DNA of 64,000 nt from an uncultured Spirochaetaceae bacterium (GCA_964627715.1 CAZVHJ010000018.1:6955-70954); one strand, 5' to 3'. Shown: positions 1 to 16,122, counted from the first letter of the stretch. Notes: generated from the letters alone by a model not told the origin. Made by a program: numbers and translations.

Positions 1-324
1 TTCCATCGATGATCTTTGCTGCCATGCTAAACCTCTTCTCTTCAGTTTGTTTGATTTGTGTGTGCGCTAAAAATGACACGCTGATCTATATCGCAATAAT
101 GCGCCGTATCGGCTCACTTTTGCAAGCCCACGCAGAAAATTGATGGACAATCCGCGGCTGATCCGGGATATTCTGTACCTCGACCTCGAAAAGGAAGTAT
201 CGGACAGCTTGAACATTCCGTTTTTCCCTGCTATGGTTGGCGAAATCCGGCCTCGTCGGATTTTCATCTGTACTTGGCAAACGAACGATCTTGCGATTTC
301 TGAATCTGAAAGGAGAGAGGTACA

Positions 325-1332
325 ATGTTTATCGCTGTGGGAGAAAATATCCACTGCACCCGGATCTACAAGGTCGGCGGTACCTTCGTGAAAAGCCTGG
401 ATGAGAGCACCCATGTGGTCGCTTACCAGGAGGACGGCCAGGAGAAGCACCTTCCCATTGCCAAACGCTTCGTCGAGGCAAGCGACTGGAAGAACGGCAA
501 GGTTAAGCACGCCGCGGTAGCCATGTGGCAGGGACTGCACGGCAGTGAAGCCGAAAAGCAAGCCGGAGTGAATTACCTGCATTACATGGTTCGAAATCAA
601 GAAGCCCATGGCGCTTCGTACCTCGATCTGAACGTGGATGAGTTCAGCACCGACATCGGCGAGAGGGAAGAGCTCATCCGCTGGGCCGCAGATATCATCC
701 AGCAGGTTTCCACGGTTCCTTTGAGCATCGATTCCTCGAATGTCGAGATCCTGAAGGCGGGACTGGATGCCTGTCAGAGCGCCAAGGGCAGGCCCATGAT
801 CAACTCAGTATCCCTGGAGCGCAAGGAGGCGATCCGGGTCGCCAAAGACGCCGGTGCCGTAGTGATCGCAGCAGGAAGCGGGGAAACCAGCATGCCTGCC
901 AACAAGGAGGATCGGATCACCAACCTGAAGTCGCTGATCGCCCTGCTCGAAAAAACCGGCTTCAACTACTCCCAGATCTACCTCGATCCGCTCGTTTTTC
1001 CCGTGTCGGTAGACCCGAAGAATGGACTGATGATTCTCGAAACCATAGAAGAACTTCGTAAAGACTACGGCCAGGAGATTCACTTCGCGCCTGGCTTGAG
1101 CAACATCAGCTACGGCATGCCGAATCGAAAGTTGATCAATCAAGTCTTTACCTATCTTTGCATACAACGGGGTCTGGACGGCGGCATCGTGGATCCGATC
1201 CAGATCAACGATAATATATTGGCCGCTGTTGATCCCAAATCGGAAAGCTTTCAACTCACTGAAGCGTTTCTTACCGGCCAGGACCAGTTCGGAATGAACT
1301 ACATCTCCGCGGTACGGGATGGTCGTCTCTAA
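325..1332 (+). CDS. Pterin-binding methyltransferase (methyl-THF:corrinoid methyltransferase, AcsE/MeTr-like; could also be the MT-II of a demethylase system)
   Basis: 335-aa ORF with an AAAGGAGAGAGG RBS just upstream of the ATG. Motifs GENIHCTR, YLDLNVDE, SIDSS, MINSVS, YLDPLVFP and PGLSNISYGMPNR follow the order of the Moorella MeTr/MetH pterin-binding barrel. Confidence 0.85.
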   Translation: MFIAVGENIHCTRIYKVGGTFVKSLDESTHVVAYQEDGQEKHLPIAKRFVEASDWKNGKVKHAAVAMWQGLHGSEAEKQAGVNYLHYMVRNQEAHGASYLDLNVDEFSTDIGEREELIRWAADIIQQVSTVPLSIDSSNVEILKAGLDACQSAKGRPMINSVSLERKEAIRVAKDAGAVVIAAGSGETSMPANKEDRITNLKSLIALLEKTGFNYSQIYLDPLVFPVSVDPKNGLMILETIEELRKDYGQEIHFAPGLSNISYGMPNRKLINQVFTYLCIQRGLDGGIVDPIQINDNILAAVDPKSESFQLTEAFLTGQDQFGMNYISAVRDGRL

Positions 1333-1395
1333 GTTCTGACTGCCGCCGCGGCGGGGTGGACACCCTATAGCCCAACAAATCAGCCCGCCCTGCCG

Positions 1396-1513
1396 TTACT
1401 ACCTTAAATATTACTGAACATTACAATATTGGTAAATATTACCAAAAATACGTACAAAATTACCAAAAAAATAGATTAATTTACAAATTCAACTCTCTCT
1501 CATCCGCTATAAT
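1396..1513 (+). promoter_or_regulatory. AT-rich intergenic region with phased TTAC(C) repeats and a TATAAT box
   Basis: TTAC occurs at about 1396, 1411, 1421, 1439, 1460 and 1481. ATTACCAAAAA is repeated exactly at 1438-1448 and 1459-1469, 21 bp apart. GGTAA-N3-TTACC lies at 1431-1443 and TATAAT at 1508-1513. Confidence 0.4.
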
Positions 1514-1533
1514 TGGTCTGAAAGCAACCATTT

Positions 1534-2754
1534 TTGTCAGAAAAGGGTAGTAGATTGGCTTCAAAAAAGGTGTGTGTAGTCGGCGCCGGGATTTCCGGGA
1601 TCTCGGTGGCTAACGATCTTACCCAGGCCGGGGTCGATGTTTTCCTAGTGGATAAGAATCCCTATCCGGGTGGGCAATCTGTGTTCTACGGCTGTAAAGC
1701 TACGGATGAATGTGTCCGCTGCGGTGTTTGTCTGGTACGGGAGGCTGTGGCAACACTGAAGAACAAGACAGCGACGGAATGTTTTTTTTCCAGCCGCCCG
1801 GTCGCTCTTCGTTCCAACAACGGTTCTATGGAAATCGATATTCAATCATCGGCAAACTTAATCGATTGGCAGGCCTGTGTGGAATGCGGGCGCTGCGTGG
1901 ACGCCTGCCCGGAGCAGGCCATCCAGAAGGTTCCCGGATGGAAGTATTTCGTCAACGAGCAGTGTACAGCCTGTGGAAGGTGTGTCGATGCCTGCCCAGT
2001 CGGAGCGATCAGCCTGAAAAGATCGCAGGAACAGACAACCATGCAGGTAGACGGGATCGTTCTGGCAGCCGGATACCAACCCTTCGATCCAGCGATCAAC
2101 CGCAAATGGGGCTTTGGAACGAATCCGAGAGTGCTTACCGGCAGCCAGTTGGAAAACCTCTTCTTCGAAGAAAAGTACCTTCCGGTGAAGGCCCAGAACA
2201 TGGCCTTTGTTCAATGCGTGGGTTCCCGCAGCATCATGGAGGGGCAGAAACAGTGCAGCCGGGTCTGCTGCGCCTACGCTCTGCGCATGGCCGGCAGACT
2301 GAAGCAGGAATACCCCGATCTGAATATAGATTTCTACTACATGGACATCCAGCGGTTTGGGAAGAACTTCGATCAATTCTGGGATCAGATAAAGGGAAAG
2401 ATCAATCTTATTCCGAGCAATCCCATCAGCGTCAAGACCGACGATAGGGGTCTGCCTGTAGTACGCTACGAATCCCTGCCCGAACTGGCCTGTCGGGAAC
2501 AAAGCTACGATATCGTGGTGCTGTCTCACGGGATCAATCCGGCTCAGGATGCGGAAAAACTTGCCGATCTGTTCAATCTGGACCTGAACACGGCTGGGTT
2601 TCTCGTTTCCCCGGGAAACGGATCGGCTGGCACGAACACCGGCGGCATCTTCACAGCGGGGACCTGCAAAAGACCGATGCGCATCGACGACTGCGTTGAG
2701 GATGCGGCCGCTGTTTCCCACCAGGTAATGCAAAGTCTAGGAGTACAGGTGTAA
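1534..2754 (+). CDS. HdrA-like FAD/FeS oxidoreductase, N-terminal-type half
   Basis: Dinucleotide fold VCVVGAGISGISVA. Two ferredoxin-type CxxCxxCxxxCP motifs (CVECGRCVDACP, CTACGRCVDACP). HdrA core motif FVQCVGSR...CSRVCC. The TTG start at 1534 is uncertain; in-frame TTG 1555 or GTG about 1567 are alternatives. Confidence 0.75.
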   Translation: MSEKGSRLASKKVCVVGAGISGISVANDLTQAGVDVFLVDKNPYPGGQSVFYGCKATDECVRCGVCLVREAVATLKNKTATECFFSSRPVALRSNNGSMEIDIQSSANLIDWQACVECGRCVDACPEQAIQKVPGWKYFVNEQCTACGRCVDACPVGAISLKRSQEQTTMQVDGIVLAAGYQPFDPAINRKWGFGTNPRVLTGSQLENLFFEEKYLPVKAQNMAFVQCVGSRSIMEGQKQCSRVCCAYALRMAGRLKQEYPDLNIDFYYMDIQRFGKNFDQFWDQIKGKINLIPSNPISVKTDDRGLPVVRYESLPELACREQSYDIVVLSHGINPAQDAEKLADLFNLDLNTAGFLVSPGNGSAGTNTGGIFTAGTCKRPMRIDDCVEDAAAVSHQVMQSLGVQV

Positions 2755-2756
2755 CC

Positions 2757-4340
2757 ATGAGCAGTACCCAATCGATCGTTGCCGTCCTTTGCGACCACCA
2801 GTGCAGTCCCAATGGTCCTATTCAGGCTTCGCAACTGCAAAAGCGGCTGGCCGAGAGCAGCAGTATCGAGAAGCTCATCGTTTTGCAGAAAGCCTGTCAG
2901 GGTGGGGAAAAGAAACTTGAAAGTTTAGCAGGACAAAAGATCCTGTTTGCCGGCTGTCCCTATCTCGAAGAGAGTGGATTCTACACTCGGGCTGCTGAAA
3001 ATCTTGGTCTCAGCCCTGGTGAAATGTTGGTCACGGATGTAAAATCGACGGTTTTCGATCTCTATGAAAGCTCCGAAACCATCGAAGACAATCTGGTCGG
3101 CAGGCTGGAATCTCTCGCTCAGCTTCTTGCCGACAGCGTTGCTGTAAAAGAACATCCGGTCAAACTGAAACCGAATGTCCTGATCTTTGGCAGCGGTCTT
3201 TCTGGTCTAAAAGCCGCCATCGAGCTTTCCGGCGAGAAAACCTCGGTGGATCTCGTGGAAACGGAGGACCAACCGGTGGCTCCCGGCTGCCTGGCCGGAG
3301 CACTCGAGTTCCCCAAACAGATCGAAGATCTGACCGAGCAGGCCCGGAGAAGCGAGCACATCGCCTTCTTTCCTCACAACCGGATGGGCCCGATCCAAAG
3401 GGTGGAGAAGGGATTCACCGTCAGCTTTGACGGAGCACAGCGACGGGAATACGGCGCCGTAATCTACGCGCCCGAACGGATCGAAGCCCCCGCGGATGAG
3501 GTCGGTGCTTGGAACCTTACCCAGCTGTACAACCGGCTTATGGAGGGGCAATCGATCAAAGGAAAGATCGTGTTTCTTCTCGATCGGAAGGCCGAGACAC
3601 CGCCGGAGGTAGTGCAGGATGTTCTGACAGCCGCTAAGGCGATCAAGGAACGCTCCCATGCCGAGGTCTGGATTCTTCTCAAACAGGTGAGGGTTGCCCT
3701 GCCTGGACTGCAGGAGCTCTACGACTTAGCCAGAGAGATGGGTATCATCTTTGTCAGATATCAAGCACTACATCTGAAAAACGACTTTGGAGATTTCCAG
3801 ATCAATGGGAAGGATCCCCAAACCGGCGCTGCATTCCAAATCAATAAACCCGATCGGGTGATTCTGCCCGGGACAGGTGAGCTCTCCCAAGCAGCTCTAA
3901 AGGTGGCCACAACTCTGGGACTTCGATTATTCAACGACACTTACACCCAGCCCTACTCACTCTGGCGGCTGGTCAACGAGTCGAACCATCCCGGCGTACT
4001 GGTGTGCGGCAGTGCACGGGGAAACATGGATGCCGTCGGGGTGGCTGAGGACGCAGCCTCCGTTGTGCTGGCCCTCAAACAACGCTTGCATCCGGAGGGT
4101 ATTACTCCTGTAGAGCATCTGGCCTCGGTAGATAAGGACAAGTGCGCCTACTGCTTGACCTGCCTGCGAGTCTGCCCCTACGGCGCCATCGGAAAGAACA
4201 GTGAAGAGCGAGTCGCCCAGGTGATTACTACAGCCTGCCAGGGCTGCGGAGTCTGCGCCTCCGAGTGTCCGGCAGAGGCGATTACCCTGCGCAATCTCAG
4301 TCAGGAGAGTGTTCTGGCTGGAATGAACAAACTGCTTTGA
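2757..4340 (+). CDS. HdrA-like FAD/FeS oxidoreductase, C-terminal-type half
   Basis: ATG lies 2 nt after the previous stop. Contains VLIFGSGLSGLKAA, VLVCGSARG and C-terminal CAYCLTCLRVCP plus CQGCGVCASECP clusters. It resembles the second module of the 1491-aa HdrA fusion downstream. Confidence 0.7.
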   Translation: MSSTQSIVAVLCDHQCSPNGPIQASQLQKRLAESSSIEKLIVLQKACQGGEKKLESLAGQKILFAGCPYLEESGFYTRAAENLGLSPGEMLVTDVKSTVFDLYESSETIEDNLVGRLESLAQLLADSVAVKEHPVKLKPNVLIFGSGLSGLKAAIELSGEKTSVDLVETEDQPVAPGCLAGALEFPKQIEDLTEQARRSEHIAFFPHNRMGPIQRVEKGFTVSFDGAQRREYGAVIYAPERIEAPADEVGAWNLTQLYNRLMEGQSIKGKIVFLLDRKAETPPEVVQDVLTAAKAIKERSHAEVWILLKQVRVALPGLQELYDLAREMGIIFVRYQALHLKNDFGDFQINGKDPQTGAAFQINKPDRVILPGTGELSQAALKVATTLGLRLFNDTYTQPYSLWRLVNESNHPGVLVCGSARGNMDAVGVAEDAASVVLALKQRLHPEGITPVEHLASVDKDKCAYCLTCLRVCPYGAIGKNSEERVAQVITTACQGCGVCASECPAEAITLRNLSQESVLAGMNKLL

Positions 4341-4368
4341 GTTCATTTTGACAAAAAGGAGTCTGGAA

Positions 4369-4761
4369 TTGGCTGATTCGATCCTGATCATACACTGTGC
4401 GGAGGGAGCCAAAAAAGCTTTGGCTCGGATGTCCGAGGAAGGTCATAAACTCCCGCCTCGGTTCAAGACCTTCGAGCTGCCCTGCACGGGAAGCGTGAAT
4501 GAAGTCCTGCTCATGGAAAATCTGCAGGACGGCTCGACCGGGATTGTTGTGCTCGGTTGTCGAAAAGAAAACTGCAAACATATGGACGGCAACCTCAAAG
4601 CTGAGCGCAAGGTGGCGCGAGTGAAGAAACTTCTTTCCGAGGCAGGAGTAGAGGGGAAGTTTGTCGAAATGGTTTTTACGGCTCCGGATGAAGGAAAGAG
4701 GCTTCATAACACCCTGCTTGGATACTCCCGAGCAGCTGATGCAAAGGGAAAGAGAAAATGA
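4369..4761 (+). CDS. mvhD: MvhD-like hydrogenase iron-sulfur (delta) subunit, divergent copy
   Basis: Motifs LPCTG and VVLGCRKENCKH are MvhD-type. AGGAG at 4357-4361 lies 7 nt before the in-frame TTG at 4369; the ORF track starts at TTG 4348. Confidence 0.7.
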   Translation: MADSILIIHCAEGAKKALARMSEEGHKLPPRFKTFELPCTGSVNEVLLMENLQDGSTGIVVLGCRKENCKHMDGNLKAERKVARVKKLLSEAGVEGKFVEMVFTAPDEGKRLHNTLLGYSRAADAKGKRK

Positions 4762-5420
4762 TCGTTGCCGAACAAAAACCGATACAAGAAATTCTGGCGA
4801 TGCTCCCCGAGCAGAAGAAGGTGCTGGTCGTGGGCTGTGACACCTGTGTGACCGTCTGCCTGGCCGGGGGTGAAAAAGAGGTCAAGGTCTTGACCGCTGC
4901 TCTGCGAATGGCTAAAAAACCCCTGGCGGAGGTAACCGGAATCTCTATAGAACGCCAGTGCGATGGAGAGTTTATCACCGAAATCAGCGAACAGGCGGCC
5001 CAGTATGATATCATCCTGTCGATGGCCTGTGGCGCAGGCGTGCAGATGGTGTCGGATTTCTTCCCCGAAAAGGCAGTCCTACCAGCCGTAAATACCCTGT
5101 TCATGGGCTCGAATGAGGGAACCGGGTACTGGCTGGAGCGCTGTCTCGGCTGTGGGGACTGTGTGCTTGATCTGACCGCGGGAATCTGCCCTCGAACCCG
5201 TTGTTCCAAGGGACTGATGAACGGACCCTGTGGGGGATCGGAAAATGGCAAGTGTGAGGTTGATCCGGAAAATTTGGACTGCGGCTGGAATCTGATCTAC
5301 CAGCGGCTCAAGAGCCTGAACCGCCTGGACAGCCTGATGGCGATTCAACCCCCCCAGGACTGGTCGAAATCCCACGACGGCGGACCGAGAAGACTCATCA
5401 GGGAGGATGTCAAGCTGTGA
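4758..5420 (+). CDS. metV: MetV-like methylene-THF reductase C-terminal-domain protein
   Basis: ATGA start/stop overlap with mvhD. The Cys-rich C-terminus CLGCGDCVLDLTAGICPRTRCSKGLMNGPCGGSENGKCEV...CGW is typical of MetV partners of acetogen-type MetF. Confidence 0.75.
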   Translation: MIVAEQKPIQEILAMLPEQKKVLVVGCDTCVTVCLAGGEKEVKVLTAALRMAKKPLAEVTGISIERQCDGEFITEISEQAAQYDIILSMACGAGVQMVSDFFPEKAVLPAVNTLFMGSNEGTGYWLERCLGCGDCVLDLTAGICPRTRCSKGLMNGPCGGSENGKCEVDPENLDCGWNLIYQRLKSLNRLDSLMAIQPPQDWSKSHDGGPRRLIREDVKL

Positions 5421-6367
5421 GAGAGCTCAAATCTGAAAGCAAACTTGAAAAGCTATTGGCCAAGGGCGAGTTCGTCGTCACCGGAGAGCTGGGTCCCCCG
5501 AAGAGTGTAGACATGAGCGTACTGGATAAGAAGGTCGAAGCCCTGCGCGGTGCTGTGGATGCTGTGAATATCACGGACAATCAGACGGCAATCGTACGCA
5601 TCTCTTCGATCGGCACGGCCTTTTATATCATGAACAGAGGACTGGAACCGGTGGTGCAGATGACCTGTCGGGATCGCAACCGCCTGGCCATCCAGGCGGA
5701 TCTGCTCGGTGCTTATCTCAACGGAGCCCGGAACCTGCTCTGCCTGACCGGGGATCATCAGAGCTTCGGTAATCATCCCCAGGCCAAGCAGGTTTACGAC
5801 ATCGACTCAATACAACTGATCCGGATTGTGAAGCAGATGCGGGACGATAAGACTTTTCAATGCGGCGATGAGATCCGCAACAATACAAAGTCGGAGATCC
5901 ATGAGCCCCGCTTCTTCATCGGAGCGGCGGCCAATCCCTTCGCGGATCCCCTGGAGTGGCGGGTGAGCCGCGTGGAAAAGAAGGCCGCTGCGGGAGTTGA
6001 TTTCGTCCAGACCCAGTGCGTGTACGATATGGACTGTTTTAAGCAATGGATGGACGAGGTAGTCGCTCGGGGTCTCCACGAAAGGATCAAGATCCTTGCT
6101 GGAATCACCCCGATCCGCTCCCTCGGTATGCTGCGCTACATGAAGAGCAGTGTAGCCGGTATCTCGATTCCCGATTCCCTGGTAGAGCGCTTCGAAAACA
6201 CCGCGGATGTTAAGGAAGAGGGAAAACAGTTCGCCCTCGAGCAGATTGAGATTTTCCGTCAGATGGAGGGTGTAGCAGGAGTGCACATCATGGCCATCGA
6301 GGCGGAACGAACTGTCCGGGGCATCGTGCAGGATTCGGGATTGCTCCCCAGGCCGCAGGCGGCGTAG
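5417..6367 (+). CDS. metF: 5,10-methylenetetrahydrofolate reductase (acetogen/anaerobe type)
   Basis: GTGA overlap with metV. 316 aa with VTGELGPP, NITDNQTA, MTCRDRNR, LCLTGDH and DFVQTQCVYD motifs of the MTHFR TIM barrel. Confidence 0.85.
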   Translation: MRELKSESKLEKLLAKGEFVVTGELGPPKSVDMSVLDKKVEALRGAVDAVNITDNQTAIVRISSIGTAFYIMNRGLEPVVQMTCRDRNRLAIQADLLGAYLNGARNLLCLTGDHQSFGNHPQAKQVYDIDSIQLIRIVKQMRDDKTFQCGDEIRNNTKSEIHEPRFFIGAAANPFADPLEWRVSRVEKKAAAGVDFVQTQCVYDMDCFKQWMDEVVARGLHERIKILAGITPIRSLGMLRYMKSSVAGISIPDSLVERFENTADVKEEGKQFALEQIEIFRQMEGVAGVHIMAIEAERTVRGIVQDSGLLPRPQAA

Positions 6368-6470
6368 CCGCGAAAGCAGGCCGATTGAAGAATAACTTGA
6401 GCCGGTCGGTCCTCCGCGAGGAAGGTGCCGAGCGGCTGAGAGAGAAAATTGAACCTTTTGGAGGAAAACG

Positions 6471-6962
6471 GTGGCTGACATCGTAATGACAGAGCTGGAC
6501 AAGGATTTCAAATACGAGGTGGCATCCCGGCCGGGAGCGAGTTTTTTCAAGCGCTGCTTTTCCTGCGGCACCTGCACTGCTTCCTGCCCCGTTTCTGAAA
6601 TAGACGAACGCTTCAATCCCCGCCTGTTCATTCGCCAGGCATTGCTGGGAGAGAAGAAAAAACTGCTCTCTTCGGAACTTCTGTGGTACTGCACCCAATG
6701 CTACACCTGTTTTGCCCGCTGTCCTCAAGACGTGCGTTTCACCGACGTCATGGCGGTGTTGCGGGATATGGCCGTTGAGCAGGGATACGTACCCAAGGAT
6801 ATGCGGGAGAGGGTGAAGCAGGTGGATGTCCTGGCTCAGGAGATTCGCCACGGGCTTGCTGAGGTGCTGTGGACCACCGCTAAAAAGAAAGATCCGGCTG
6901 AGATCGAGAAAACCGTAAAGAGCAAACTGGCCAAAGGCCTGAAGGAGTTACAGCAGTCATGA
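6471..6962 (+). CDS. hdrC: HdrC-like 4Fe-4S dicluster protein
   Basis: GGAGGA RBS and GTG start. CFSCGTCTASCP and CTQCYTCFARCP motifs in a roughly 160-aa protein, as in heterodisulfide reductase subunit C. Confidence 0.75.
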   Translation: MADIVMTELDKDFKYEVASRPGASFFKRCFSCGTCTASCPVSEIDERFNPRLFIRQALLGEKKKLLSSELLWYCTQCYTCFARCPQDVRFTDVMAVLRDMAVEQGYVPKDMRERVKQVDVLAQEIRHGLAEVLWTTAKKKDPAEIEKTVKSKLAKGLKELQQS

Positions 6963-9900
6963 GTCAAAACGGCAGCGGCTCGGTTCTGGTTGTTGGAGGA
7001 GGCATTGCCGGAATCCAGGCCTCCCTCGACCTGGCCGATGCGGGCTTTCGGGTAAACCTGGTCGAATCCTCTCCCACGATCGGCGGCGTCATGGCCCAGT
7101 TGGACAAGACTTTTCCCACCAACGATTGCTCGATGTGTATCATGAGCCCCAAACTGGTTGACTGCGCCCGGCACCTGAATATCAATCTGTTGACCCTATC
7201 TGAAGTCAAGTCTGTGTCCGGGCAGCCGGGGGATTTCACAGCCAAGGTTCACCGTAAAGCCCGGTACGTGGACGAGGACAAATGTACGGGTTGCGGAGAG
7301 TGCGAGAAGTACTGCCCCGTTCCTATGCCCAATGAGTTCGACGAAAAGCTTGGAATCCGGCACGCCATCTACCGCCCCTTTCCCCAAGCCGCACCCAACG
7401 TGTTCGCCATCCAGAAAAAGGGCAAGAGCCCCTGCAGCGCCGCCTGTCCGGCGGACTGCAACGCCCATGGCTACGTTTCGCTGATCCGAGAGCGCAAATT
7501 CAAGGAGGCCCTTCAGCTGATTCGCGACCGCATCCCTCTGCCCGCCGTATGCGGGAGGGTCTGCGGGCTGTGCGAGGATGAATGCAACCGCAACAACCTC
7601 GATCAAGCCGTCGAGATTCGAGCCTTGAAACGGTTTGCCTCCGACTGGGAGATGAATCATCAGGAGGAAATGGCGGAATACCTCGAAGCTGCCAGACCAA
7701 CGGGAAAGAAAAAGGCAAAAGTTGCGATTGTGGGTTCCGGACCTGCCGGTCTGACCGCCGCCTACGACCTGGCCAAGCTCGGCTACCAACCGGTGGTTTT
7801 TGAAGCTCTACCTAAAACCGGCGGGATGCTTCGCTACGGCATTCCTCAGTATCGCCTGCCCGATGAGGTTCTGGACTACGAGGTAGGAGTCATCGAAAAG
7901 GCGGGTGTCGATATCAGAACAAGAGAAGCTTTCAGCAAGAGCACGACTGTGCAAGGCCTGCGCAAAGAGGGCTTCGAAGCGGTGTTTCTTGCTGCGGGAA
8001 CCCAGAAGAGCCGTAAACTTTTTATCGAGGGTGAGGAGCTCGAAGGTATTCTTCCCGCCCTCGATTTTCTAAAAGCTGCAGACAACGGCAAATCATCTTC
8101 CGCAGTCGAGGGCAAAATCGTAGCCGTCATCGGCGGAGGCAACACCGCCATCGACTCGGTACGTACCGCCCGCAGGCTGGGAGCTAAAGAAGCCCTTCTG
8201 ATCTATCGACGTACCAGAGCAGAGATGCCTGCGATAGCCGAAGAAGTGCAAGCTGCCGAGGAAGAGGGAATCAAACTTTACTTTCTCCTGGCGCCGCAAA
8301 AGATATTGGGGAAATCCGGGAAGGTCACAGACCTTGTTTGTACGCGTATGCGTCTGGGAGCTCCAGACGCTTCGGATCGACGGCGACCCATTCCCGTGCC
8401 GGGTCAAACCGAAAGCATTCACGTGGATGTGATCATCTCGGCTCTCGGTCAGGAAGTGGACACGGCCTTCATAGACGCCGAGGGCGCTAAGCTCGACATG
8501 GTGAAGGGTCTCATCAAGGTCGACCCGGTGAGTTTACAGACCAGCATACCCGGTGTATTCGCCGGTGGAGACGTGGCTGGCGCGGGAGGATACGTGGTGC
8601 ACGCCATCGCCCACGGACACACCGCGGCGCAGTCCATAGACCGCTATCTGAGTAAAAAAGATCTCCACGAAGGGCGTACTCCGGAACCTACCCCGACCGC
8701 TCCCATGCCGGAGGAATTCCACGAGAAAAAGCCTCGTGTCCCTGTACCAATGCTCGATGTAAACAAGCGGATCAGTAATTTTGCCGAGGTTGAGCTGGGT
8801 TTGAGCGAAGAGCAGGCCGTAGAGGAGGCCAGCCGCTGCCTGAACTGCGGCGTGTGCTGCGAGTGCCAGCAGTGCGTGGCCCACTGTGAAGCCGATGCGA
8901 TTGATCACACCCAGAAAAATGAAGAACTTGAGCTGAAAGTCGGAGCCGTTCTGGTCGCCGCGGGCTGTGAAAAATACGATCCCAAGGCCATGTACCACCT
9001 TGGCTACGGGAAATACCCGGATGTTGTAACCAGTATCCAGTTCGAGCGCATCCTCTCCGCTTCCGGTCCCTTCGGAGGACATATTCAGCGGCCTTCCGAC
9101 GGAGTGCTTCCCAAGAAAGTGGCCTTCATTCAGTGCGTGGGTTCTCGAGACCCGGTAGCGGGGAATGATCACTGCTCCTCGGTGTGCTGCATGTACGCCA
9201 TCAAGGAAGCTGTGATCGCCAAAGAGCACGAACACGAGATCGAACCCACGATCTTCTACATGGATATCCGCGCCCATGGCAAAGATTTCGATCGCTACTT
9301 CGAGAGAGCCAAGAGCGAATACGGAATAAAGTTCACCCGCGCCCGGGTATCCGGGGTTGTGCGGGATGAGGCAACGGGCAAACTGCTGCTCGAATACGAG
9401 AACGAGGCAAACGGAATAGCCCATGAAGAGTTCGACCTGGTGGTGCTGTCAATCGGTTTTCAGGGCGGCAGCAGCCTGCGAGAGCTGGGTCGGAGCCTGG
9501 GAGTGCCCCTGAACCGCTACGGCTTTATCGCCACTGATCCCTTCAACCCGGTGGAAACGAAGGTGCCGGGGATCTTCATCTGCGGCCCTGCCCAGGAACC
9601 GAAAGACATCCCGGAAACCGTCATGCAAGCATCCGCGGGCGCTGCAGCTGCCGCCGAGACCCTTGCGGGAAACCGCTGGAGCGAGGTGCTGGAGAAGACC
9701 TATCCGGAGGAACGGGACGTAACCGCCGAACCTCTGCGGGTTGGAGTGTTTGTCTGCCACTGCGGCATCAACATCGGAGCAACCGTACAGGTTCCCGAGG
9801 TGGTGGAGTACGCCAAAACCCTGCCCGACGTGGCCTATGCGGAGGCCAACCTATACACCTGCTCCCAGGACACCCAGGCTCATATCCGAGACATGATCGA

Positions 9901-11434
9901 TGAACATGGCCTGAACAGGGTCATCGTGGCCTCCTGTACTCCCAGGACCCACGAACCTCTGTTTCAGGAGACGATCCGGGAGGCGGGCCTGAACCGTCAT
10001 CTCTTCGAAATGGCCAACATCCGGGATCAATGTTCCTGGATCCATATGGGTCTTTCTGCAGAGGCAACGGAGAAAGCCAAGGACCTGCTGCGAATGTCAT
10101 TAGCCAAGGTACGGCTGGTGGAGCCGTTGCCGACCATCCCTCTGGATGTTCAGCAAAGCGCCCTGGTTCTAGGCGGCGGTCCCGCCGGAATGTCTGCAGC
10201 CCTGTCCCTGGCCAATCAGGGATTCCCCGTACACATCGTCGAAAGGCAGAACAAGCTCGGCGGCAATCTGAACAAGGTTCTGTCCACCATAGAGGGTCGG
10301 GACACACAGGTGCTGCTGGACAAGATGCTGAATCAGATCGAAGAATACAAAAACATCACCGTACATCTGGGAACTACGATCGAAGCGGTGGAAGGATTCG
10401 TCGGTCAATTCAAGACACGGCTCAATGGAAACGGCAGCGGCAGTCAGGAAATCGAGCACGGCGTTGTGATCATCGCCACGGGAGCCCAGGAATCCAAACC
10501 CACCGAATATCTGTACGGGCAGGACAAACGGGTACTGACCGGCCAGGAGCTCGAAGAGCTGCTGCACAAAGCGGCGCCGGATACACTACCCAAACGGGTT
10601 GTCTTCATCCAGTGTGTGGGCTCTCGGGAAGAGGGTCACATGTACTGCAGCCGGGTTTGCTGCCGACAGAGCATCAAGAATGCCCTGACCTTGAAGAGGA
10701 AACAATCAGAGGCGGAAGTGTACATCCTGTTCCGGGATATGCGTACCTACGGTTTTGCCGAACGCTACTACCAGGAAGCCCGGGATGCCGGGGTGATCTT
10801 CCTGCGCTACCAACCGGAAGCCAAGCCGGTGGCAGAGATTAGGGGCGACAAGCTTCAGATCTCGGTCAAGGATATCCAGAGTGCAGAAACAATCGTAATT
10901 ACCGATCCTGATGCCGTGGTACTGGCGGCAAGAATCGACGCCGAGGCGGGTAACGAAGGCATCTCCCAGGCGTTCAAGGTACCCCTTAACCAGGATGGAT
11001 TCTTCCTCGAAGCTCATGTCAAACTGCGTCCGGTGGATTTCGCCACCGAAGGGGTATACCTGGCGGGTATGGCTCACAATCCCAAAACGATCGAAGAATC
11101 CATCGTCCAGGGCCGCGCCGCCGCCGCCCGGGCAGCTACGATCATCGCCAAAGACAAATACCTGGCTGAAGCAACGATCGCTGCAGTGAACGAAGATCTG
11201 TGCGACGGCTGCGGCATTTGCGTGGGGGTGTGTGAGTACAACGCCTTGGAAATCGAGGAAAAGCCCGACCAAATGCAGGCGGAGCCTTCCCGCAGGACCA
11301 AGATTGTGAAACTAAACGAAGCGGCCTGCAAGGGCTGCGGCTGCTGCGTGGCTGCTTGTCCAAGCGGTGCGATGGAGCAGAAGGGATACAAGAATGAACA
11401 GATCATGGCGGAAATCGACGCCGCCCTGCTCTAA
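6959..11434 (+). CDS. HdrL-type giant HdrA fusion (HdrA module + inserted GltD/NfnB-like NAD(P)H oxidoreductase + second HdrA module + ferredoxin domains)
   Basis: 1491 aa with an ATGA overlap with hdrC. VLVVGGGIAGIQ and the TNDCSMCI HdrA signature. GltD-like stretch at about aa 155-565 (VAIVGSGPAGL, GGMLRYGIPQYRLP, VIGGGNTAIDS, GVFAGGDV). FIQCVGSRD...CSSVCC appears twice. Terminal motifs CDGCGICVGVCE and CKGCGCCVAACP. Confidence 0.85.
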   Translation: MSQNGSGSVLVVGGGIAGIQASLDLADAGFRVNLVESSPTIGGVMAQLDKTFPTNDCSMCIMSPKLVDCARHLNINLLTLSEVKSVSGQPGDFTAKVHRKARYVDEDKCTGCGECEKYCPVPMPNEFDEKLGIRHAIYRPFPQAAPNVFAIQKKGKSPCSAACPADCNAHGYVSLIRERKFKEALQLIRDRIPLPAVCGRVCGLCEDECNRNNLDQAVEIRALKRFASDWEMNHQEEMAEYLEAARPTGKKKAKVAIVGSGPAGLTAAYDLAKLGYQPVVFEALPKTGGMLRYGIPQYRLPDEVLDYEVGVIEKAGVDIRTREAFSKSTTVQGLRKEGFEAVFLAAGTQKSRKLFIEGEELEGILPALDFLKAADNGKSSSAVEGKIVAVIGGGNTAIDSVRTARRLGAKEALLIYRRTRAEMPAIAEEVQAAEEEGIKLYFLLAPQKILGKSGKVTDLVCTRMRLGAPDASDRRRPIPVPGQTESIHVDVIISALGQEVDTAFIDAEGAKLDMVKGLIKVDPVSLQTSIPGVFAGGDVAGAGGYVVHAIAHGHTAAQSIDRYLSKKDLHEGRTPEPTPTAPMPEEFHEKKPRVPVPMLDVNKRISNFAEVELGLSEEQAVEEASRCLNCGVCCECQQCVAHCEADAIDHTQKNEELELKVGAVLVAAGCEKYDPKAMYHLGYGKYPDVVTSIQFERILSASGPFGGHIQRPSDGVLPKKVAFIQCVGSRDPVAGNDHCSSVCCMYAIKEAVIAKEHEHEIEPTIFYMDIRAHGKDFDRYFERAKSEYGIKFTRARVSGVVRDEATGKLLLEYENEANGIAHEEFDLVVLSIGFQGGSSLRELGRSLGVPLNRYGFIATDPFNPVETKVPGIFICGPAQEPKDIPETVMQASAGAAAAAETLAGNRWSEVLEKTYPEERDVTAEPLRVGVFVCHCGINIGATVQVPEVVEYAKTLPDVAYAEANLYTCSQDTQAHIRDMIDEHGLNRVIVASCTPRTHEPLFQETIREAGLNRHLFEMANIRDQCSWIHMGLSAEATEKAKDLLRMSLAKVRLVEPLPTIPLDVQQSALVLGGGPAGMSAALSLANQGFPVHIVERQNKLGGNLNKVLSTIEGRDTQVLLDKMLNQIEEYKNITVHLGTTIEAVEGFVGQFKTRLNGNGSGSQEIEHGVVIIATGAQESKPTEYLYGQDKRVLTGQELEELLHKAAPDTLPKRVVFIQCVGSREEGHMYCSRVCCRQSIKNALTLKRKQSEAEVYILFRDMRTYGFAERYYQEARDAGVIFLRYQPEAKPVAEIRGDKLQISVKDIQSAETIVITDPDAVVLAARIDAEAGNEGISQAFKVPLNQDGFFLEAHVKLRPVDFATEGVYLAGMAHNPKTIEESIVQGRAAAARAATIIAKDKYLAEATIAAVNEDLCDGCGICVGVCEYNALEIEEKPDQMQAEPSRRTKIVKLNEAACKGCGCCVAACPSGAMEQKGYKNEQIMAEIDAALL

Positions 11435-11449
11435 GGGAAGAGGAAAACA

Positions 11450-11905
11450 ATGAGCGAGAGTTTTACGCCGAAAATACTTGTATTCTGCTGCAACTGGTGC
11501 GCCTACGCCGGGGCTGACCTGGCCGGCGTCAGCAGACTGCAGATAACACCACACTTCCGGGTCATCCGAACGCTCTGTTCCGCCCGAGTGGATCCCGAGT
11601 TTATCCTTCACGCCTTCAAGCAGGGAGCCGATGGGGTCATGGTGCTCGGCTGCCATCCCGGCGACTGCCACTACATTGGAGGCAACTACCGAACCCGGCG
11701 GCGCATGGCCCTGCTCAAGCTGATGCTCCAGCAGTTCGGCCTGAACAAGGACCGTTTTCACCTGGAGTGGGTTTCCGCCGCCGAAGGTGAGAAGTTCGCT
11801 CAAGTGGTAAACAGTTTCGTGGAGCGGGTCACCCAGCTAGGTCCCAGCCCGTTCCGAAAGCTGAAAGAAGAAAAGAAAACGGAAGCGGTTGCAGCCGTCC
11901 AATAG
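11450..11905 (+). CDS. mvhD: MvhD, methyl-viologen-reducing hydrogenase delta subunit
   Basis: Canonical ILVFCCNWCAYAGADLAG and VLGCHPGDCHY motifs. Confidence 0.85.
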   Translation: MSESFTPKILVFCCNWCAYAGADLAGVSRLQITPHFRVIRTLCSARVDPEFILHAFKQGADGVMVLGCHPGDCHYIGGNYRTRRRMALLKLMLQQFGLNKDRFHLEWVSAAEGEKFAQVVNSFVERVTQLGPSPFRKLKEEKKTEAVAAVQ

Positions 11906-11921
11906 GAGGGACGAATAGATC

Positions 11922-12929
11922 ATGGCCGAAAAAATCACGATAGCACTGAAACGTGGAGCGTCCTGCGTGGGCTGCGATATCGCCATCGTCAACTTCAACG
12001 AAGAGCTGTTCACTCTTCTCGAGGTGGCGGATATAGTCTTTGCGCCCACTCTTCTCGATGTAAAATACGATGATCTCAAGAAGATGCCGGACAAGTCCAT
12101 CACCATCGGTTTCTACCACGGAGCTGTCCGGAACTCTGATAATGAAGAACTCGCCCATGTCATGCGTCAGAAGTGCCAGATCCTCATCGCCTACGGAGCC
12201 TGCGCCCACATGGGAGGGATTCCAGGATTGGCCAATGTATCGACAAAACAGGCGATCCTGAACAAGGTCTACAAGGAGACCTTTTCAGTGGTAAATCCCG
12301 AGGGCACACTGCCCCTGGAAAAGATGCAGGATGAGGCAGGCCACGAGCTGACCTTGCCCAGGTTTTACGACCAGGTTATGGCGCTCGACGACGTGGTGGA
12401 CGTCGACTACTTCGTCCCGGCCTGCCCGCCGACACCGGACATGAACATGAAGATCCTCGGTGTTGTGAAGGCCTTTGTCACCGAAGGCAAGCCCTTGCCG
12501 CCGAAAGGTACGGTGATTGCATCGGAAAAGACCCTCTGCGACGAGTGCAAGCGGGAACGGGGGGAGAAGGTCGAGGTGGACCGGCTGTACCGGGTGCACG
12601 AAAAAGAATTCGACCCGGAGAAGTGCTTTCTCGACCAGGGGATCATCTGCCTGGGGCCGGCCACCCGAGCCGGCTGCGGCGCGGTATGTACTGAGACCAA
12701 TATGCCCTGCCGTGGCTGCATGGGACCGACCGCCGCGGTGACCGAACAGGGCGCCTCGATGCTCTCCGCTCTGGCTTCAGTGTACGGCCTGACAGACAGG
12801 GAGAGTGAGATGAGCGAAGAGGAGATCGATAAGTTGATGAGCAACATCCTCGATCCTCTGGGCTGTTTTTACAGGTTCAGCCTGCCAAAGTCACAGCTGG
12901 GAAGAGTCGTCAGCGATACGAAAGGATAA
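11922..12929 (+). CDS. mvhG: [NiFe] hydrogenase small subunit, Mvh/F420-non-reducing type (cytoplasmic, no Tat signal)
   Basis: 335 aa with GASCVGCDIA near the N-terminus, no RRxF twin-arginine leader and C-terminal Cys clusters (CDECK, CLGPATRAGCGAVC, CRGC). Confidence 0.8.
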   Translation: MAEKITIALKRGASCVGCDIAIVNFNEELFTLLEVADIVFAPTLLDVKYDDLKKMPDKSITIGFYHGAVRNSDNEELAHVMRQKCQILIAYGACAHMGGIPGLANVSTKQAILNKVYKETFSVVNPEGTLPLEKMQDEAGHELTLPRFYDQVMALDDVVDVDYFVPACPPTPDMNMKILGVVKAFVTEGKPLPPKGTVIASEKTLCDECKRERGEKVEVDRLYRVHEKEFDPEKCFLDQGIICLGPATRAGCGAVCTETNMPCRGCMGPTAAVTEQGASMLSALASVYGLTDRESEMSEEEIDKLMSNILDPLGCFYRFSLPKSQLGRVVSDTKG

Positions 12930-12933
12930 GAGC

Positions 12934-14433
12934 ATGCCACAGATCTGGGACGAAACGCATAAGACAGACCGCCGGGTCATCCATATCGAGCCGGTCACCC
13001 GGCTGGAGGGCCACGCAAAAATAGATATCTTTCTCGACGAAAAGGGCAACGTGGAGGAAACCTACTTCCAGGTTGTCGAGTTGAGAGGGTTCGAGGAGTT
13101 CTGCAAGGGCCGTCCTGCGGAGGAGATGCCCCGCATCGTAACCCGTCTGTGCGGGGTCTGTCCCTGGCCGCATCATCTCGCCTCCAGCCGTGCCCTGGAC
13201 GTGCTGTTCGACGCCCCCCCGCCGCCTACGGCTCACAAGATCCGGGAGCTAGGCTACTGCGCCCACATGCTGGAGAGTCATCTGGAACACGTATACGCTC
13301 TGGGTCCGGCTCCGGATTTCGTACTAGGTCCGGCGGCGGACCCGATGAAGCGCAACGTCCTCGGTGTGATCGAAGCGGTGGGGCTGGAGACTGGCACCTC
13401 CGTGATCAAGCACCGTGGATACGCGGTGGAGATCGAGAACATCATCGGGGGCAAGTCGACTCACCCGGTCTTCAGCATCCCGGGAGGCGTTTCCCGTCCA
13501 ATGACCCGGGAGCAGGTCGATCGGATCCGGGAGCTGGCGGACAAGTTGGTGGATTTCACCGAGTTCACCCTCACCGTAGTGGACGATGTGATCCTGTCCA
13601 ACAAAGACTATGTGGATATCATTTTGAACAAGGACCTCTACTATCACAACTCCTACCACATGGGCATGGTAGACGACAACGGAAAGCTGGCCTTCTACGG
13701 CGGCAAGATGCGCATCATGAGCCCGGAGGGAAAGATCGTCGACAACTTCACGGAGAACGAGTACCTCGATTACGTGGCCGAACACACGGTGCCCTGGTCC
13801 TATCTGAAGTTCCCCTACCTGAAGAAGGTCGGTTGGAAGGGACTCACCGATGGGGTAGACTCAGGTCTGTACCGGGTGGCGCCCCTGTCCCGGATGAACG
13901 TGGCCGACGGCATGGCCACCCCCAAGGCCCAGGCGGCCTACGATCGCTTTTTCGAAACCCTGGGACAGAAACCGGTCCAGAACTCCCTGTCCTTTCACTG
14001 GGCACGGGCGATCGAATGCGTTTACGCGGCGGAACGGCTGCAGCAACTGGCAAACGATCCGGAGATCCTCGGCAAGGATTACCGCACGATCAGTACCACG
14101 GTTGCCGGCGAGGGTGTCGGCATCGTGGAGGCGCCGCGGGGTTCGCTGTTCCATCACTACAAGAGCGATGAGAAAGGGTTGATCATCGATCTGAACCTGA
14201 TCGTGGCCAGCGCTCAGAACTACGGAGCCATGAACCTGGACATCCGTAACGTGGCCAAAACTCTGATCAAGGATGGGCAGATCTCAAACGGAATCCTCAA
14301 CATGGTGGAGATGGGCTTTCGCTCTTACGATCCCTGTTTCTCCTGCGCCACCCATGCGGCCATCGGACAGATGCCGATGGAGCTGGTGATCCACGACAGC
14401 ACGGGCGAGGAGATCCGACGGATCCGGCGTTAG
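12934..14433 (+). CDS. mvhA: [NiFe] hydrogenase large subunit, Mvh type
   Basis: Motifs EPVTRLEGH and RLCGVCPWPHH (N-terminal Ni ligands). C-terminal DPCFSCATH is followed by a 24-aa extension that would be removed by the protease. Confidence 0.9.
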   Translation: MPQIWDETHKTDRRVIHIEPVTRLEGHAKIDIFLDEKGNVEETYFQVVELRGFEEFCKGRPAEEMPRIVTRLCGVCPWPHHLASSRALDVLFDAPPPPTAHKIRELGYCAHMLESHLEHVYALGPAPDFVLGPAADPMKRNVLGVIEAVGLETGTSVIKHRGYAVEIENIIGGKSTHPVFSIPGGVSRPMTREQVDRIRELADKLVDFTEFTLTVVDDVILSNKDYVDIILNKDLYYHNSYHMGMVDDNGKLAFYGGKMRIMSPEGKIVDNFTENEYLDYVAEHTVPWSYLKFPYLKKVGWKGLTDGVDSGLYRVAPLSRMNVADGMATPKAQAAYDRFFETLGQKPVQNSLSFHWARAIECVYAAERLQQLANDPEILGKDYRTISTTVAGEGVGIVEAPRGSLFHHYKSDEKGLIIDLNLIVASAQNYGAMNLDIRNVAKTLIKDGQISNGILNMVEMGFRSYDPCFSCATHAAIGQMPMELVIHDSTGEEIRRIRR

Positions 14434-14480
14434 GCGGGCGCAACGCCCGCGGTTATTCCCCCGGCCCCGAGTCACGCAGA

Positions 14481-14951
14481 ATGGCCAGCACCCTGATCCT
14501 CTACCTGGGAAACCCGATCGTGAAAAACGATCAGGTGGGCCTGATCGTCGGCGCCCAGATCGCATCTCTTTTCTCCTCAAACCCCGAGGTAGATGTTCAG
14601 GAGTTCAGCGGTTCTCCTATGGATCTGGTATCCGACATACAAGGATACGATCGATTGATTCTCATCGACTCGACCTCAACGGGGAAGAGGACGATCGGCT
14701 CGGTAACCCTGTTCGGGGAAGAGGAGTTTCTATCGAACAGAGGGGATGTCTATTTGCACGGAATGAATCTTTCTGAAGCCCTGATCCTTTGCCGCCGTAT
14801 GCAGCTTCCCTTTCCCAAAGAGTTGCACCTGATCGGCATCGAAGCAGGCGCCATCTACGAGTTCGGTGAAATCTTATCCGCGGAACTTCAGGACAAGCTT
14901 CCCCAGATAATCCCTGAGGTTCGTCGGATTGTGGAAAAACTAATAGAGTAG
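14481..14951 (+). CDS. Hydrogenase maturation endopeptidase (HyaD/HybD/FrhD family)
   Basis: 156 aa with ILYLGNPIVKNDQVG, LILIDS and HGMNL motifs, immediately after the large subunit. Confidence 0.8.
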   Translation: MASTLILYLGNPIVKNDQVGLIVGAQIASLFSSNPEVDVQEFSGSPMDLVSDIQGYDRLILIDSTSTGKRTIGSVTLFGEEEFLSNRGDVYLHGMNLSEALILCRRMQLPFPKELHLIGIEAGAIYEFGEILSAELQDKLPQIIPEVRRIVEKLIE

Positions 14952-15053
14952 TCGAGGGCGCTTCAGTTTTCTCCCATGACTTCGTTGTCGTACTCCACCT
15001 CGAAGCGCAGCTTGTGTATTGAAGTAGATATAACCGATTGAAAAGGAAAATAC

Positions 15054-16070
15054 ATGACGGGTCTGGAAAGAACGCAAAAGGCCATGCGAATGGAGCCCAT
15101 CGATCGCATTCCAACGTTCCCGATTCTCATTGCTCCTGCTTGCCAACTCATAGGGGTCAAGCAGCGTGATTACTCACTCGATCCTGATGTGATGGCAGAC
15201 ACCTTGTTGAAAGCGAGAGATCTACTCGGCGCGGATGGAGTATACGTGTCCCGGGACAACTGGGTTTATCACCAGGCTTTGGGGGGAAACCTGATCTTTC
15301 CCGAGGATGAGGAGTCATACAGTAAGGAGCCAATTCTCGATTCGATCAAGGAGTTTCGCAAGTTGCAGATTCCGGATCCCGAAATTGCACCAGGAATGAA
15401 AACACTGCTTTCCGCAGCTAGGAAAGTCGTAGGGAAGGTCGGCGGTCAGTACTACATTCAGGCCAATATCGATTGCGGACCTTTTAGTCTTGCTGCAGTC
15501 TTGCGGGGTGCTCAATCGTTCTTACTGGACCTGGTAACGGAGGATGAGAAAGATCTCCACGAGTTCCTGGACTTCTGTAGCGAAGTAGTAATCGCCTATG
15601 GACGGGCGATGATTTCCACCGGGGTACACGGGATACAGTACGGAGACTCTACGGCGAGTTTGATCAGCCCCGAACACTACGAGAGATTTGTCCTGCCCTA
15701 CCAGCAGAAATCCGTTGACGCCTTAACGGGGAAAGACTGCGACATATGGATCCACATATGCGGTAATACCGAGCATCTCCTGCACTTTTTACGACCGCTC
15801 AATTTCCAGGGATTTGAGGTGGATGCAAAGGTTGAAATGGTGACGGCACGGAGACTCCTTGGAGACCGTGTCGCGATAAAGGGGAATCTGGATACGACTT
15901 TCTTACTAAAACAAAGCCCGGATGAGGTTTACGAAGCGACTCAACAAATCCTGCGCAGTGGGAACTTCAAAACCGGGATCATTATGTCTCCGGGCTGCGG
16001 AGTGCCCCGGATGACGCCCCTCAATAATCTACGAGCAATGGTGCAGGCTTGCGAAGATTACAAACTCTGA
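15054..16070 (+). CDS. URO-D-fold protein (MtaA/CmuA-like methyltransferase family), paralog P1
   Basis: 338 aa. N-terminal ERTQKAMRMEPIDRIP. HICGN (H-x-C-G) plus a later SPGCG Cys, resembling the MtaA-type Zn motif H-x-C...C. Confidence 0.75.
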   Translation: MTGLERTQKAMRMEPIDRIPTFPILIAPACQLIGVKQRDYSLDPDVMADTLLKARDLLGADGVYVSRDNWVYHQALGGNLIFPEDEESYSKEPILDSIKEFRKLQIPDPEIAPGMKTLLSAARKVVGKVGGQYYIQANIDCGPFSLAAVLRGAQSFLLDLVTEDEKDLHEFLDFCSEVVIAYGRAMISTGVHGIQYGDSTASLISPEHYERFVLPYQQKSVDALTGKDCDIWIHICGNTEHLLHFLRPLNFQGFEVDAKVEMVTARRLLGDRVAIKGNLDTTFLLKQSPDEVYEATQQILRSGNFKTGIIMSPGCGVPRMTPLNNLRAMVQACEDYKL

Positions 16071-16122
16071 CCATTTGCAAGCAGATAACAATTCGAATCC
16101 ATCTCCAGCTTAGCTCCCACGG

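Follow-up and report, generated by a model that had tools for sequence, protein, structure and literature searches.

The window analysed here, i.e. the whole 64,000 nt stretch C18:6955-70954 from the metagenome-assembled genome (MAG) G000 of an uncultured Spirochaetaceae bacterium, carries near its left end a cluster of 13 genes in one direction (positions 325-16070), which we consider, with a probability of roughly 0.55, to encode a variant of the Moorella-type (type IV) methylene-tetrahydrofolate (methylene-THF) reductase that lacks HdrB and is coupled to a hydrogenase. The product would be a soluble multi-subunit reductase in which HdrB has been lost and a cytoplasmic Mvh-type [NiFe] hydrogenase has been acquired as one of several electron ports. 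More tentatively, it may be a soluble, H2-driven, flavin-based bifurcating reductase working without HdrB (2 H2 + methylene-THF + oxidised ferredoxin -> methyl-THF + reduced ferredoxin), with MetFV as the high-potential sink and an exchangeable MvhD-docked input enzyme (hydrogenase or NAD(P)H module), which suggests H2 as a direct partner of a key CO2-fixation step. The features of the cluster, as given by the listing of open reading frames (ORFs) and by Pfam/NCBIfam searches, are:

1..79, minus strand: 5' end of folD (methylene-THF dehydrogenase/cyclohydrolase), the remainder lying upstream of the window (L006:6092-7033(-); PF02882, E 1e-70; PF00763)
325..1332, plus strand: MeTr-like methyl-THF:corrinoid methyltransferase, 335 aa (PF00809, Pterin_bind, E 5e-24; NF005719, E 5e-55, below cut-off)
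1555..2754 (alternative start 1534), plus strand: HdrA1 (aligns with HdrA 8rvu residues 152-564, E 3e-55; TAA stop at 2752-2754)
2757..4340, plus strand: HdrAx (residues 53-166 and 291-523 align with HdrA 8rvv 54-168 and 406-638)
4348..4761, plus strand: MvhD1, a divergent MvhD/FlpD with the four Cys kept (PF02662, E 3e-25)
4758..5420, plus strand: MetV, Cys-rich iron-sulphur (FeS) subunit of MetFV (PF12225, E 1e-36)
5417..6367, plus strand: MetF, acetogen-type methylene-THF reductase catalytic subunit (PF02219, E 9e-40)
6471..6962, plus strand: HdrC-like 2x[4Fe-4S] protein, 163 aa (TIGR03290, E 4e-28, 98 bits against a cut-off of 160)
6959..11434, plus strand: HdrL, 1491 aa (Pfam; HdrA 5odc, E 3e-197; NfnB 5jca, E 3e-88)
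11144..11434, plus strand: C-terminal ferredoxin domain of HdrL (sliding-window identities)
11450..11905, plus strand: MvhD2, canonical [2Fe-2S] adaptor of the Mvh-associated type (PF02662, E 9e-56; VhuD, E 1e-37)
11922..12929, plus strand: MvhG, [NiFe] hydrogenase small subunit (NF045875 VhuG, E 3e-61)
12934..14433, plus strand: MvhA, [NiFe] hydrogenase large subunit (NF041785 VhuA, E 4e-117, 391 bits against an equivalog cut-off of 800)
14481..14951, plus strand: hydrogenase maturation endopeptidase (TIGR00072, E 2e-22; PF01750)
15054..16070, plus strand: MtaA/CmuA-like methyltransferase of the URO-D fold, final gene of the run (TIGR01463, E 3e-53, below cut-off; PF01208)

Families and cofactor motifs were borne out for all 13 genes. 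The original prediction, which had been made from the DNA sequence, named twelve co-directional genes; each of these was found where it had been placed and belongs to the expected family, and only the count has to be corrected, since the run goes on to a thirteenth gene, the MtaA/CmuA-like one. Its further claim also stands, namely that one compact cluster joins MetFV to Hdr-type flavoproteins, a GltD/NfnB-like NAD(P)H module and an Mvh hydrogenase. The 4 nt start/stop overlaps (ATGA/GTGA) that it reported at 4758, 5417 and 6959 are real, i.e. the mvhD1 stop overlaps the metV start (ATGA), metV and metF overlap by 4 nt and the stop of the hdrC-like gene overlaps the hdrL start. The GTG start of metF at 5417 has a Shine-Dalgarno sequence, AGGGAGGA, upstream. 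Intergenic gaps measure 2-47 nt within hdrA1-metF and within hdrC-protease, with mvhD2 starting 15 nt past hdrL, and an AT-rich gap of 222 nt lies between the MeTr gene and hdrA1. Directly upstream of the cluster folD is divergent, and the genes past 16070 are on the minus strand.

The architecture of HdrL is that of the HdrA of the Moorella enzyme (1487 aa; PMC9430772), and we therefore take the system for a version of the type IV reductase already known rather than for a new kind. On this point the original prediction has to be amended; its gene set, the absence of HdrB in the cluster and the linkage stand. Core 1 of HdrL is an HdrA core whose inserted ferredoxin domain is split by a GltD/NfnB-like module (residues ~156-600) for flavin adenine dinucleotide (FAD), NAD(P)H and 2x[4Fe-4S], so that PF14691 and PF07992 are found inside the HdrA frame. 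After the module follow an HdrA N-terminal domain, core 2 with QCVGSR...CSRVCC and a C-terminal ferredoxin domain. The type IV reductase of Moorella thermoacetica and Sporomusa ovata, HdrCBA-MvhD-MetVF, was described by Mock et al. (2014), as related in PMC9430772, PMC8760232 and PMC13391211. Both systems have an acetogen-type MetF adjoining MetV, mvhD directly before metV, an HdrC with two [4Fe-4S] motifs and an HdrA of ~1490 aa, in which core 1 is interrupted by the GltD-like FAD/NAD(P)H module and core 2 has the N-terminal and C-terminal ferredoxin domains. Unlike the type IV enzyme, the present cluster lacks HdrB, contains one further HdrA pair, which is split, along with a second MvhD, places hdrC-hdrL downstream instead of upstream of metF, and has a complete Mvh [NiFe] hydrogenase with its protease attached.

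The split pair follows the same logic as the two halves of HdrL. HdrA1 combines a thioredoxin-reductase-type FAD core, a Cys-rich loop, an inserted 2x[4Fe-4S] ferredoxin domain and FVQCVGSR...CSRVCC, and has neither the N-terminal domain nor the C-terminal ferredoxin domain. HdrAx, a reduced HdrA paralogue, keeps the N-terminal domain, has a dinucleotide fold with GSGLSG and ends in a 2x[4Fe-4S] ferredoxin domain, but is without the inserted ferredoxin domain and without the flavin-adjacent cluster motif CxGSR...CSxxCC. The losses are thus complementary in HdrA1/HdrAx as well as in the HdrL halves, i.e. one core has the Cys loop without the N-terminal domain and the other the reverse, a pattern that was read as heterodimeric HdrA by Chadwick et al. 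(PMC9012536). No symmetric HdrA of the methanogen type, with N-terminal domain, thioredoxin-reductase core, inserted and C-terminal ferredoxin domains in one protein, is encoded here, the four domains being split over complementary cores. The 'three HdrA-type flavoproteins' of the original prediction are right as a number of proteins, but between them these contain four cores of the thioredoxin-reductase type, one each in HdrA1 and HdrAx and the other two in HdrL. A selenocysteine read-through joining the 406 aa and 527 aa HdrA ORFs was ruled out, the separating stop being TAA; as no ORF of the cluster contains an in-frame stop, no selenocysteine is implied.

The lack of a CCG-domain HdrB in the cluster, as originally predicted, holds: no CCG domain was found on the 76.5 kb contig C18. 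Nor does an hdrB gene lie just outside the window, the neighbours being the divergent folD upstream and minus-strand genes downstream. No HdrB-type gene was found in the G000 assembly either (4.88 Mb, 100 contigs; completeness 87.7 %, contamination 6.3 %), where the genome-wide search gave CCG matches only in a GlcD/GlcF-like pair on contig C65, a 1060 aa fusion on C6 and a one-CCG protein on C44, all three contexts belonging to other systems. The C44 operon (L112:2732-11103) encodes an aldehyde dehydrogenase, a GltD/NfnB-like::ferredoxin::MvhD fusion (764 aa), the one-CCG protein (382 aa), a Fer2_4/Pyr_redox_2/BFD protein (693 aa) and an amino-acid-oxidase-like DAO flavoprotein.

It is quite improbable, in our view, that the enzyme is an ordinary type IV reductase with HdrB supplied in trans, by either the 382 aa one-CCG protein of C44 or a gene in the unassembled 12 %. 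The limited completeness of the MAG leaves room for this, several close relatives do have hdrB elsewhere, and the C44 operon pairs its CCG protein with an MvhD-containing flavoprotein. However, the C44 protein has one CCG domain only and sits among aldehyde dehydrogenase and amino-acid-oxidase-like genes. The two-CCG HdrB of the close relatives sits in a 7 kb porABG-hdrA::mvhD-hdrC-hdrB island with its own HdrA (an 838 aa hdrA::mvhD fusion) and HdrC, which is present in 6/10 nearest relatives (e.g. L139:1281-8309, G008:C80). In G000 the island is missing; since both of its flanks are assembled and joined on contig C15, with 10 nt between them (6812-6821) and 89-90 % nucleotide identity, its absence at this site is real. 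Moreover, another genome with the hydrogenase-bearing cluster, G020, is 95 % complete and has no CCG match, and the HdrB-less layout is conserved across phyla.

This conservation emerges from 100 loci, i.e. 20 found in relatives and 80 obtained by scanning a single genome for each species. In 14 of them hdrC-hdrB stand beside hdrL-mvhD-metVF, mostly upstream as in Moorella, with HdrL as the HdrA (layout 1), and in another 32 hdrL-mvhD-metVF is followed by an HdrC-HdrB fusion (layout 2, the Anaerolineae type; PMC5736913). The core order of the present cluster, hdrA1-hdrAx-mvhD-metV-metF-hdrC-hdrL-mvhD without a CCG protein (layout 3), recurs in 21; its hosts are several Spirochaetota families, Atribacterota, one Bacillota MAG (permuted) and contigs labelled Anaerolineales. 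Across the metVF pairs, mvhD directly precedes metV in 74/92, and MeTr is the conserved upstream neighbour in the relatives.

The hydrogenase, on the other hand, is a lineage-specific module swap and not general to this type of cluster. Among the layout 3 clusters, 15 distinct loci with readable downstream sequence show the usual ending after mvhD2, i.e. two FeS proteins of ~350 and 343 aa, of which one has Fer4_22, together with a PyrK-like NAD(P)H protein (NAD_binding_1/DHODB_Fe-S; e.g. L012:12560-15497); a 16th such row, L032, is the same contig as L016 and was not counted. In G000, G020 and G012, mvhG-mvhA-protease follow mvhD2 in place of this module. The FeS-FeS-PyrK module resembles sulfhydrogenase beta/gamma or AsrAB, and together with the NfnB-like insert of HdrL it may form an Nfn-like pair. 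A locus in another spirochaete family (L138, G164:C14:44000-61000) reads ...mvhD-FeS-FeS-PyrK and then a second hdrL-mvhD-mvhG-mvhA, so that this gene order places both input modules in tandem at one locus.

Evidence for the swap is also given by protein identities. Compared with its nearest relative, G008, G000 shows 87-96 % protein identity from MeTr to HdrC, 80 % in HdrL and 59 % in MvhD2, whereas for its MvhD2, MvhG and MvhA the identity to G020 and G012 is 73-84 %, against 26-71 % for the other proteins of these two genomes. In sliding windows, the identity switches at HdrL residue ~1395, i.e. at the start of the C-terminal ferredoxin domain, past which the HdrL of G000 resembles that of the Mvh-bearing relatives and not that of its closest relatives. 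This position is a recombination breakpoint; MvhD and the hydrogenase therefore move together with the ferredoxin domain at the C-terminal end of HdrL. In the maximum-likelihood MvhD tree, the sequences followed by FeS/PyrK form one clade (support 99/95), and MvhD2 of G000 groups with those of G012 and G020 (100/99), apart from its own genus; thus, the MvhD sequences group by downstream module and not by species. [quoted passage not shown] A unit that moves as one in evolution is expected to be in contact, and the joint transfer of the ferredoxin domain, MvhD and hydrogenase fits this known electron path of MvhAGD-HdrABC.

A second, independent link joins a different hydrogenase to metVF. At the syntenic site of a closed genome of the same genus (G006, L021:1676-9041 of C1), a minus-strand folD is followed by MeTr, hydrogenase small and large subunits, a protease, metV, metF and an MtaA-like gene; no Hdr genes are present, and MeTr and the MtaA-like protein are 82 % and 87 % identical to those of G000. 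This hydrogenase is of the NiFeSe type, and its small subunit aligns with the model only from position 38, indicating that the usual export signal is missing.

Several observations weigh against the assignment to a single HdrB-less, hydrogenase-coupled reductase. The hydrogenase version is rare: relatives of the Mvh small subunit were found in 11/401 genomes of the phylum sample (G000 and 10 others), and in the inspected loci of the 10 others mvhDGA stand beside an ordinary hdrA, without metVF within the fetchable upstream sequence. Promoter and terminator scans of positions 1-16500 remained at chance level, with no informative site. In Sporomusa, no co-purification of Hdr and MvhD with MetVF was obtained, and such interactions as were observed were weak (PMC9430772). 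At 87.7 % completeness and 6.3 % contamination, the absence of hdrB is not proven for the whole genome, and acetyl-CoA synthase was not found in the G000 assembly. Furthermore, two HdrA pairs and two MvhD fit two separate enzymes equally well, and the 103 nt between metF and hdrC are the largest internal gap.

The last two observations speak for MetFV working with HdrA1, HdrAx and MvhD1, next to a stand-alone HdrC-HdrL-MvhD2-MvhGA that bifurcates or confurcates H2, NAD(P)+ and ferredoxin, the two being located together only because one feeds reductant to the Wood-Ljungdahl pathway's methyl branch. The right-hand part indeed swaps its terminal module independently of the left-hand part, and hdrA-mvhDGA without metVF nearby is what other Spirochaetota have. 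Against such a division, hdrC-hdrL-mvhD stand directly past metF in 21 loci, from several phyla; in layouts 1 and 2 HdrL-MvhD adjoins metVF as the sole HdrA, just as in the Moorella enzyme (PMC9430772); and HdrC has no other obvious partner in the cluster. We consider two enzymes unlikely on balance and retain the single hydrogenase-coupled reductase as the favoured reading.

In this reductase, MetF would provide the flavin and folate site and MetV the FeS clusters, MetFV being likely the terminal oxidoreductase. The candidate bifurcating flavins would lie in two asymmetric HdrA 'heterodimers', i.e. HdrA1+HdrAx with MvhD1 and the fused HdrL with MvhD2; the GltD/NfnB-like module of HdrL would serve as the NAD(P)H port and the HdrC-like protein as a 2x[4Fe-4S] wire. 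H2 would be oxidised at MvhA and its electrons passed via MvhG, MvhD2 and HdrL's C-terminal ferredoxin domain to a flavin, from which the exergonic flow to methylene-THF (-200 mV) could pay for ferredoxin reduction. The system would be reversible: with methyl donors, the oxidation of methyl-THF together with reduced ferredoxin could lead to H2 release. What the data show are the gene content, the conserved core order, the module swap and the lack of HdrB; complex formation, bifurcation, the direction and the protein contacting MetV are what we infer, and the same goes for methylene-THF as the high-potential couple that would replace the substrate of HdrB.

Two wirings can be envisaged. HdrC may carry the high-potential electrons of the HdrL flavin to MetV and MetF, which would put MetFV in the HdrB position as the sink, or MetFV may sit behind MvhD1, at the place held by the hydrogenase in Mvh-Hdr. 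The position of hdrC after metF favours the former and the near-constant adjacency of mvhD and metV the latter, and the two are equally plausible. The HdrC-like protein has two CX2CX2CX3CP motifs and, when clusters with and without HdrB are compared, belongs to a distinct subfamily with the motif LDxxFKYE, ~20 aa shorter than HdrB-adjacent HdrC; as far as the sequences tell, this difference does not decide which partner HdrC would contact. In alignments, MetV has 13 invariant Cys. Its AlphaFold2 model (mean pLDDT, i.e. predicted local distance difference test, 71) has a confident N-terminal alpha/beta domain of ~115 residues and a poorly modelled Cys-rich C-terminal half; a Foldseek comparison with the PDB returned only generic alpha/beta matches (E > 0.008), with no likeness to HdrB or a hydrogenase small subunit, and a sequence search found no solved MetV structure. 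A search for MetV fused to longer proteins revealed MetF-MetV, RnfC-MetV, Rieske-MetV, FolD-MetV and B12-domain-MetV, and neither MetV-HdrC nor MetV-CCG. A 592 aa ORF that combines a ferredoxin domain, MvhD and MetV in a single frame occurs on a metagenome contig from long reads, where the cluster is of this type too (L141:10001-11779); it was left uncounted, since the adjoining HdrA1 and HdrL are fragmented and the ORF is therefore probably a frameshift artefact.

The hydrogenase itself is closest to the VhuA/Mvh model. MvhA has the motifs RLCGVCPWPH and DPCFSCATH, with Cys and not selenocysteine ligands, and a cleavable 26 aa C-terminal tail; no twin-arginine translocation (Tat) signal motif was seen in the MvhG N-terminus, and HypD is encoded elsewhere in G000.

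With regard to physiology, G000 encodes formyl-THF synthetase, folD, three MeTr paralogues, a CooS-type protein and four RnfD/NqrB homologues. The original prediction had pointed to carbon monoxide dehydrogenase and acetyl-CoA synthase (CODH/ACS) and to the corrinoid FeS protein as genes to look for in the genome; acsC, acsD and the CooS-type protein are there, but acetyl-CoA synthase is not among the findings. On C47 there is a second locus for the methyl branch (L113, C47:21315-41314), with a MetF-like protein of 300 aa, a fusion MetF::MetV of 676 aa, a radical SAM (S-adenosylmethionine) protein that binds B12, acsE, acsD, RACo and acsC. As this acs locus runs to the contig end, acetyl-CoA synthase is probably just missing from the assembly. 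It is present in 14/18 genomes of the family and 6/9 of the genus, so that the lineage mostly has the Wood-Ljungdahl pathway.

The same reductase may, with its direction specified, work mainly oxidatively: methyl groups would reach THF via the MtaA-like protein and MeTr, the resulting methyl-THF would be oxidised in a confurcation that also draws on reduced ferredoxin or NAD(P)H, and H2 would be released as a redox valve. MeTr and the MtaA/CmuA-like methyltransferase flank the cluster next to the divergent folD, tblastn with the MtaA-like URO-D protein gave matches at more than a dozen places in G000, and the oxidation of methyl-THF with NAD+ is endergonic and needs coupling (PMC13391211). All these enzymes are reversible, however, MeTr and folD serve both directions, and acetyl-CoA synthase is encoded by most relatives, which makes them possible acetogens. 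A mainly oxidative role is thus a possibility on which we would not rely; given the flanking methyltransferases and the many URO-D paralogues, the oxidation of methyl groups with H2 release is as plausible as the H2-driven reduction.

Parts of this hydrogenase-coupled reductase are known from other systems. With MvhAGD-HdrABC of hydrogenotrophic methanogens (PDB 5ODC, 8RVU; PMC9012536) it shares an Mvh-type [NiFe] hydrogenase in the order mvhD-mvhG-mvhA, the MvhD adaptor, the HdrA-type FAD cores and HdrC as an FeS wire, but here there is neither HdrB nor CoM-S-S-CoB; its HdrA cores are asymmetric (split or fused), one with an NfnB-like insert. The HdrL of Desulfobacterium autotrophicum and Syntrophobacter fumaroxidans (PMC2702500, PMC5947623) is likewise a large fusion of the HdrA/glutamate-synthase type followed by mvhD; those loci are tied to dsr, fdh or hdrABC, some with selenocysteine, in contrast to metVF and mvhGA here. 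The HdrL-MvhD-MetV-MetF core is found in the hdrA-mvhD-metVF-hdrCB of marine Anaerolineae (PMC5736913), where a CCG-bearing HdrC-HdrB fusion directly follows metF instead of the plain HdrC. That methylene-THF may be reduced in the cytoplasm with H2, by bifurcation via MvhAGD, was put forward for the metVF-hdrA-mvhD of type I Acetothermia (PMC9586279), in which HdrB is present and a locus elsewhere encodes the hydrogenase and hdrBC, unlike the single HdrB-less cluster here. In contrast to the NfnAB transhydrogenase, the NfnB-like module is part of HdrL and no PyrK-like (NfnA-type) gene is present in the cluster, to which the search for it was confined. HdrL, the Hdr-type reductase and, with the separate loci of Acetothermia, the H2-dependent bifurcating reading are therefore known already, whereas our literature search found no paper on the HdrB-less layout or its hydrogenase version.

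The energy coupling and the second electron partner of the Hdr-type enzyme have been debated since the Moorella work, with NADH, menaquinone, dithiols and an unknown carrier under discussion (2022, 2026; PMC9430772, PMC13391211). A natural HdrB-less version takes the 'unknown disulfide' out of this coupling problem, and the attachment of a hydrogenase via its own MvhD and a matching ferredoxin domain nominates H2 and ferredoxin as partners. That hydrogenase and NAD(P)H module are exchanged offers a natural experiment in how HdrA systems take up different donors. If the bifurcating reading is true, Wood-Ljungdahl organisms would have an energy-conserving methylene-THF step that needs no membrane component, and an electron partner would be named for an enzyme class in which this question has been open since 2014. 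Considering that these uncultured sediment spirochaetes mostly have acetyl-CoA synthase, it would also bear on the makers and consumers of H2 and acetate in anoxic sediments.

The nearest named database record to G000 is an 'uncultured Spirochaetaceae' MAG. Contamination was rejected as an origin of contig C18, since genomes of the same genus share both cluster and flanks, with protein identities of 80-96 %. In the MeTr of the cluster (325-1332), the pterin-binding domain spans residues 89-290 and the N-terminal ~88 residues match no family; the protein, one of the three MeTr paralogues of G000, scores under the AcsE model cut-offs.

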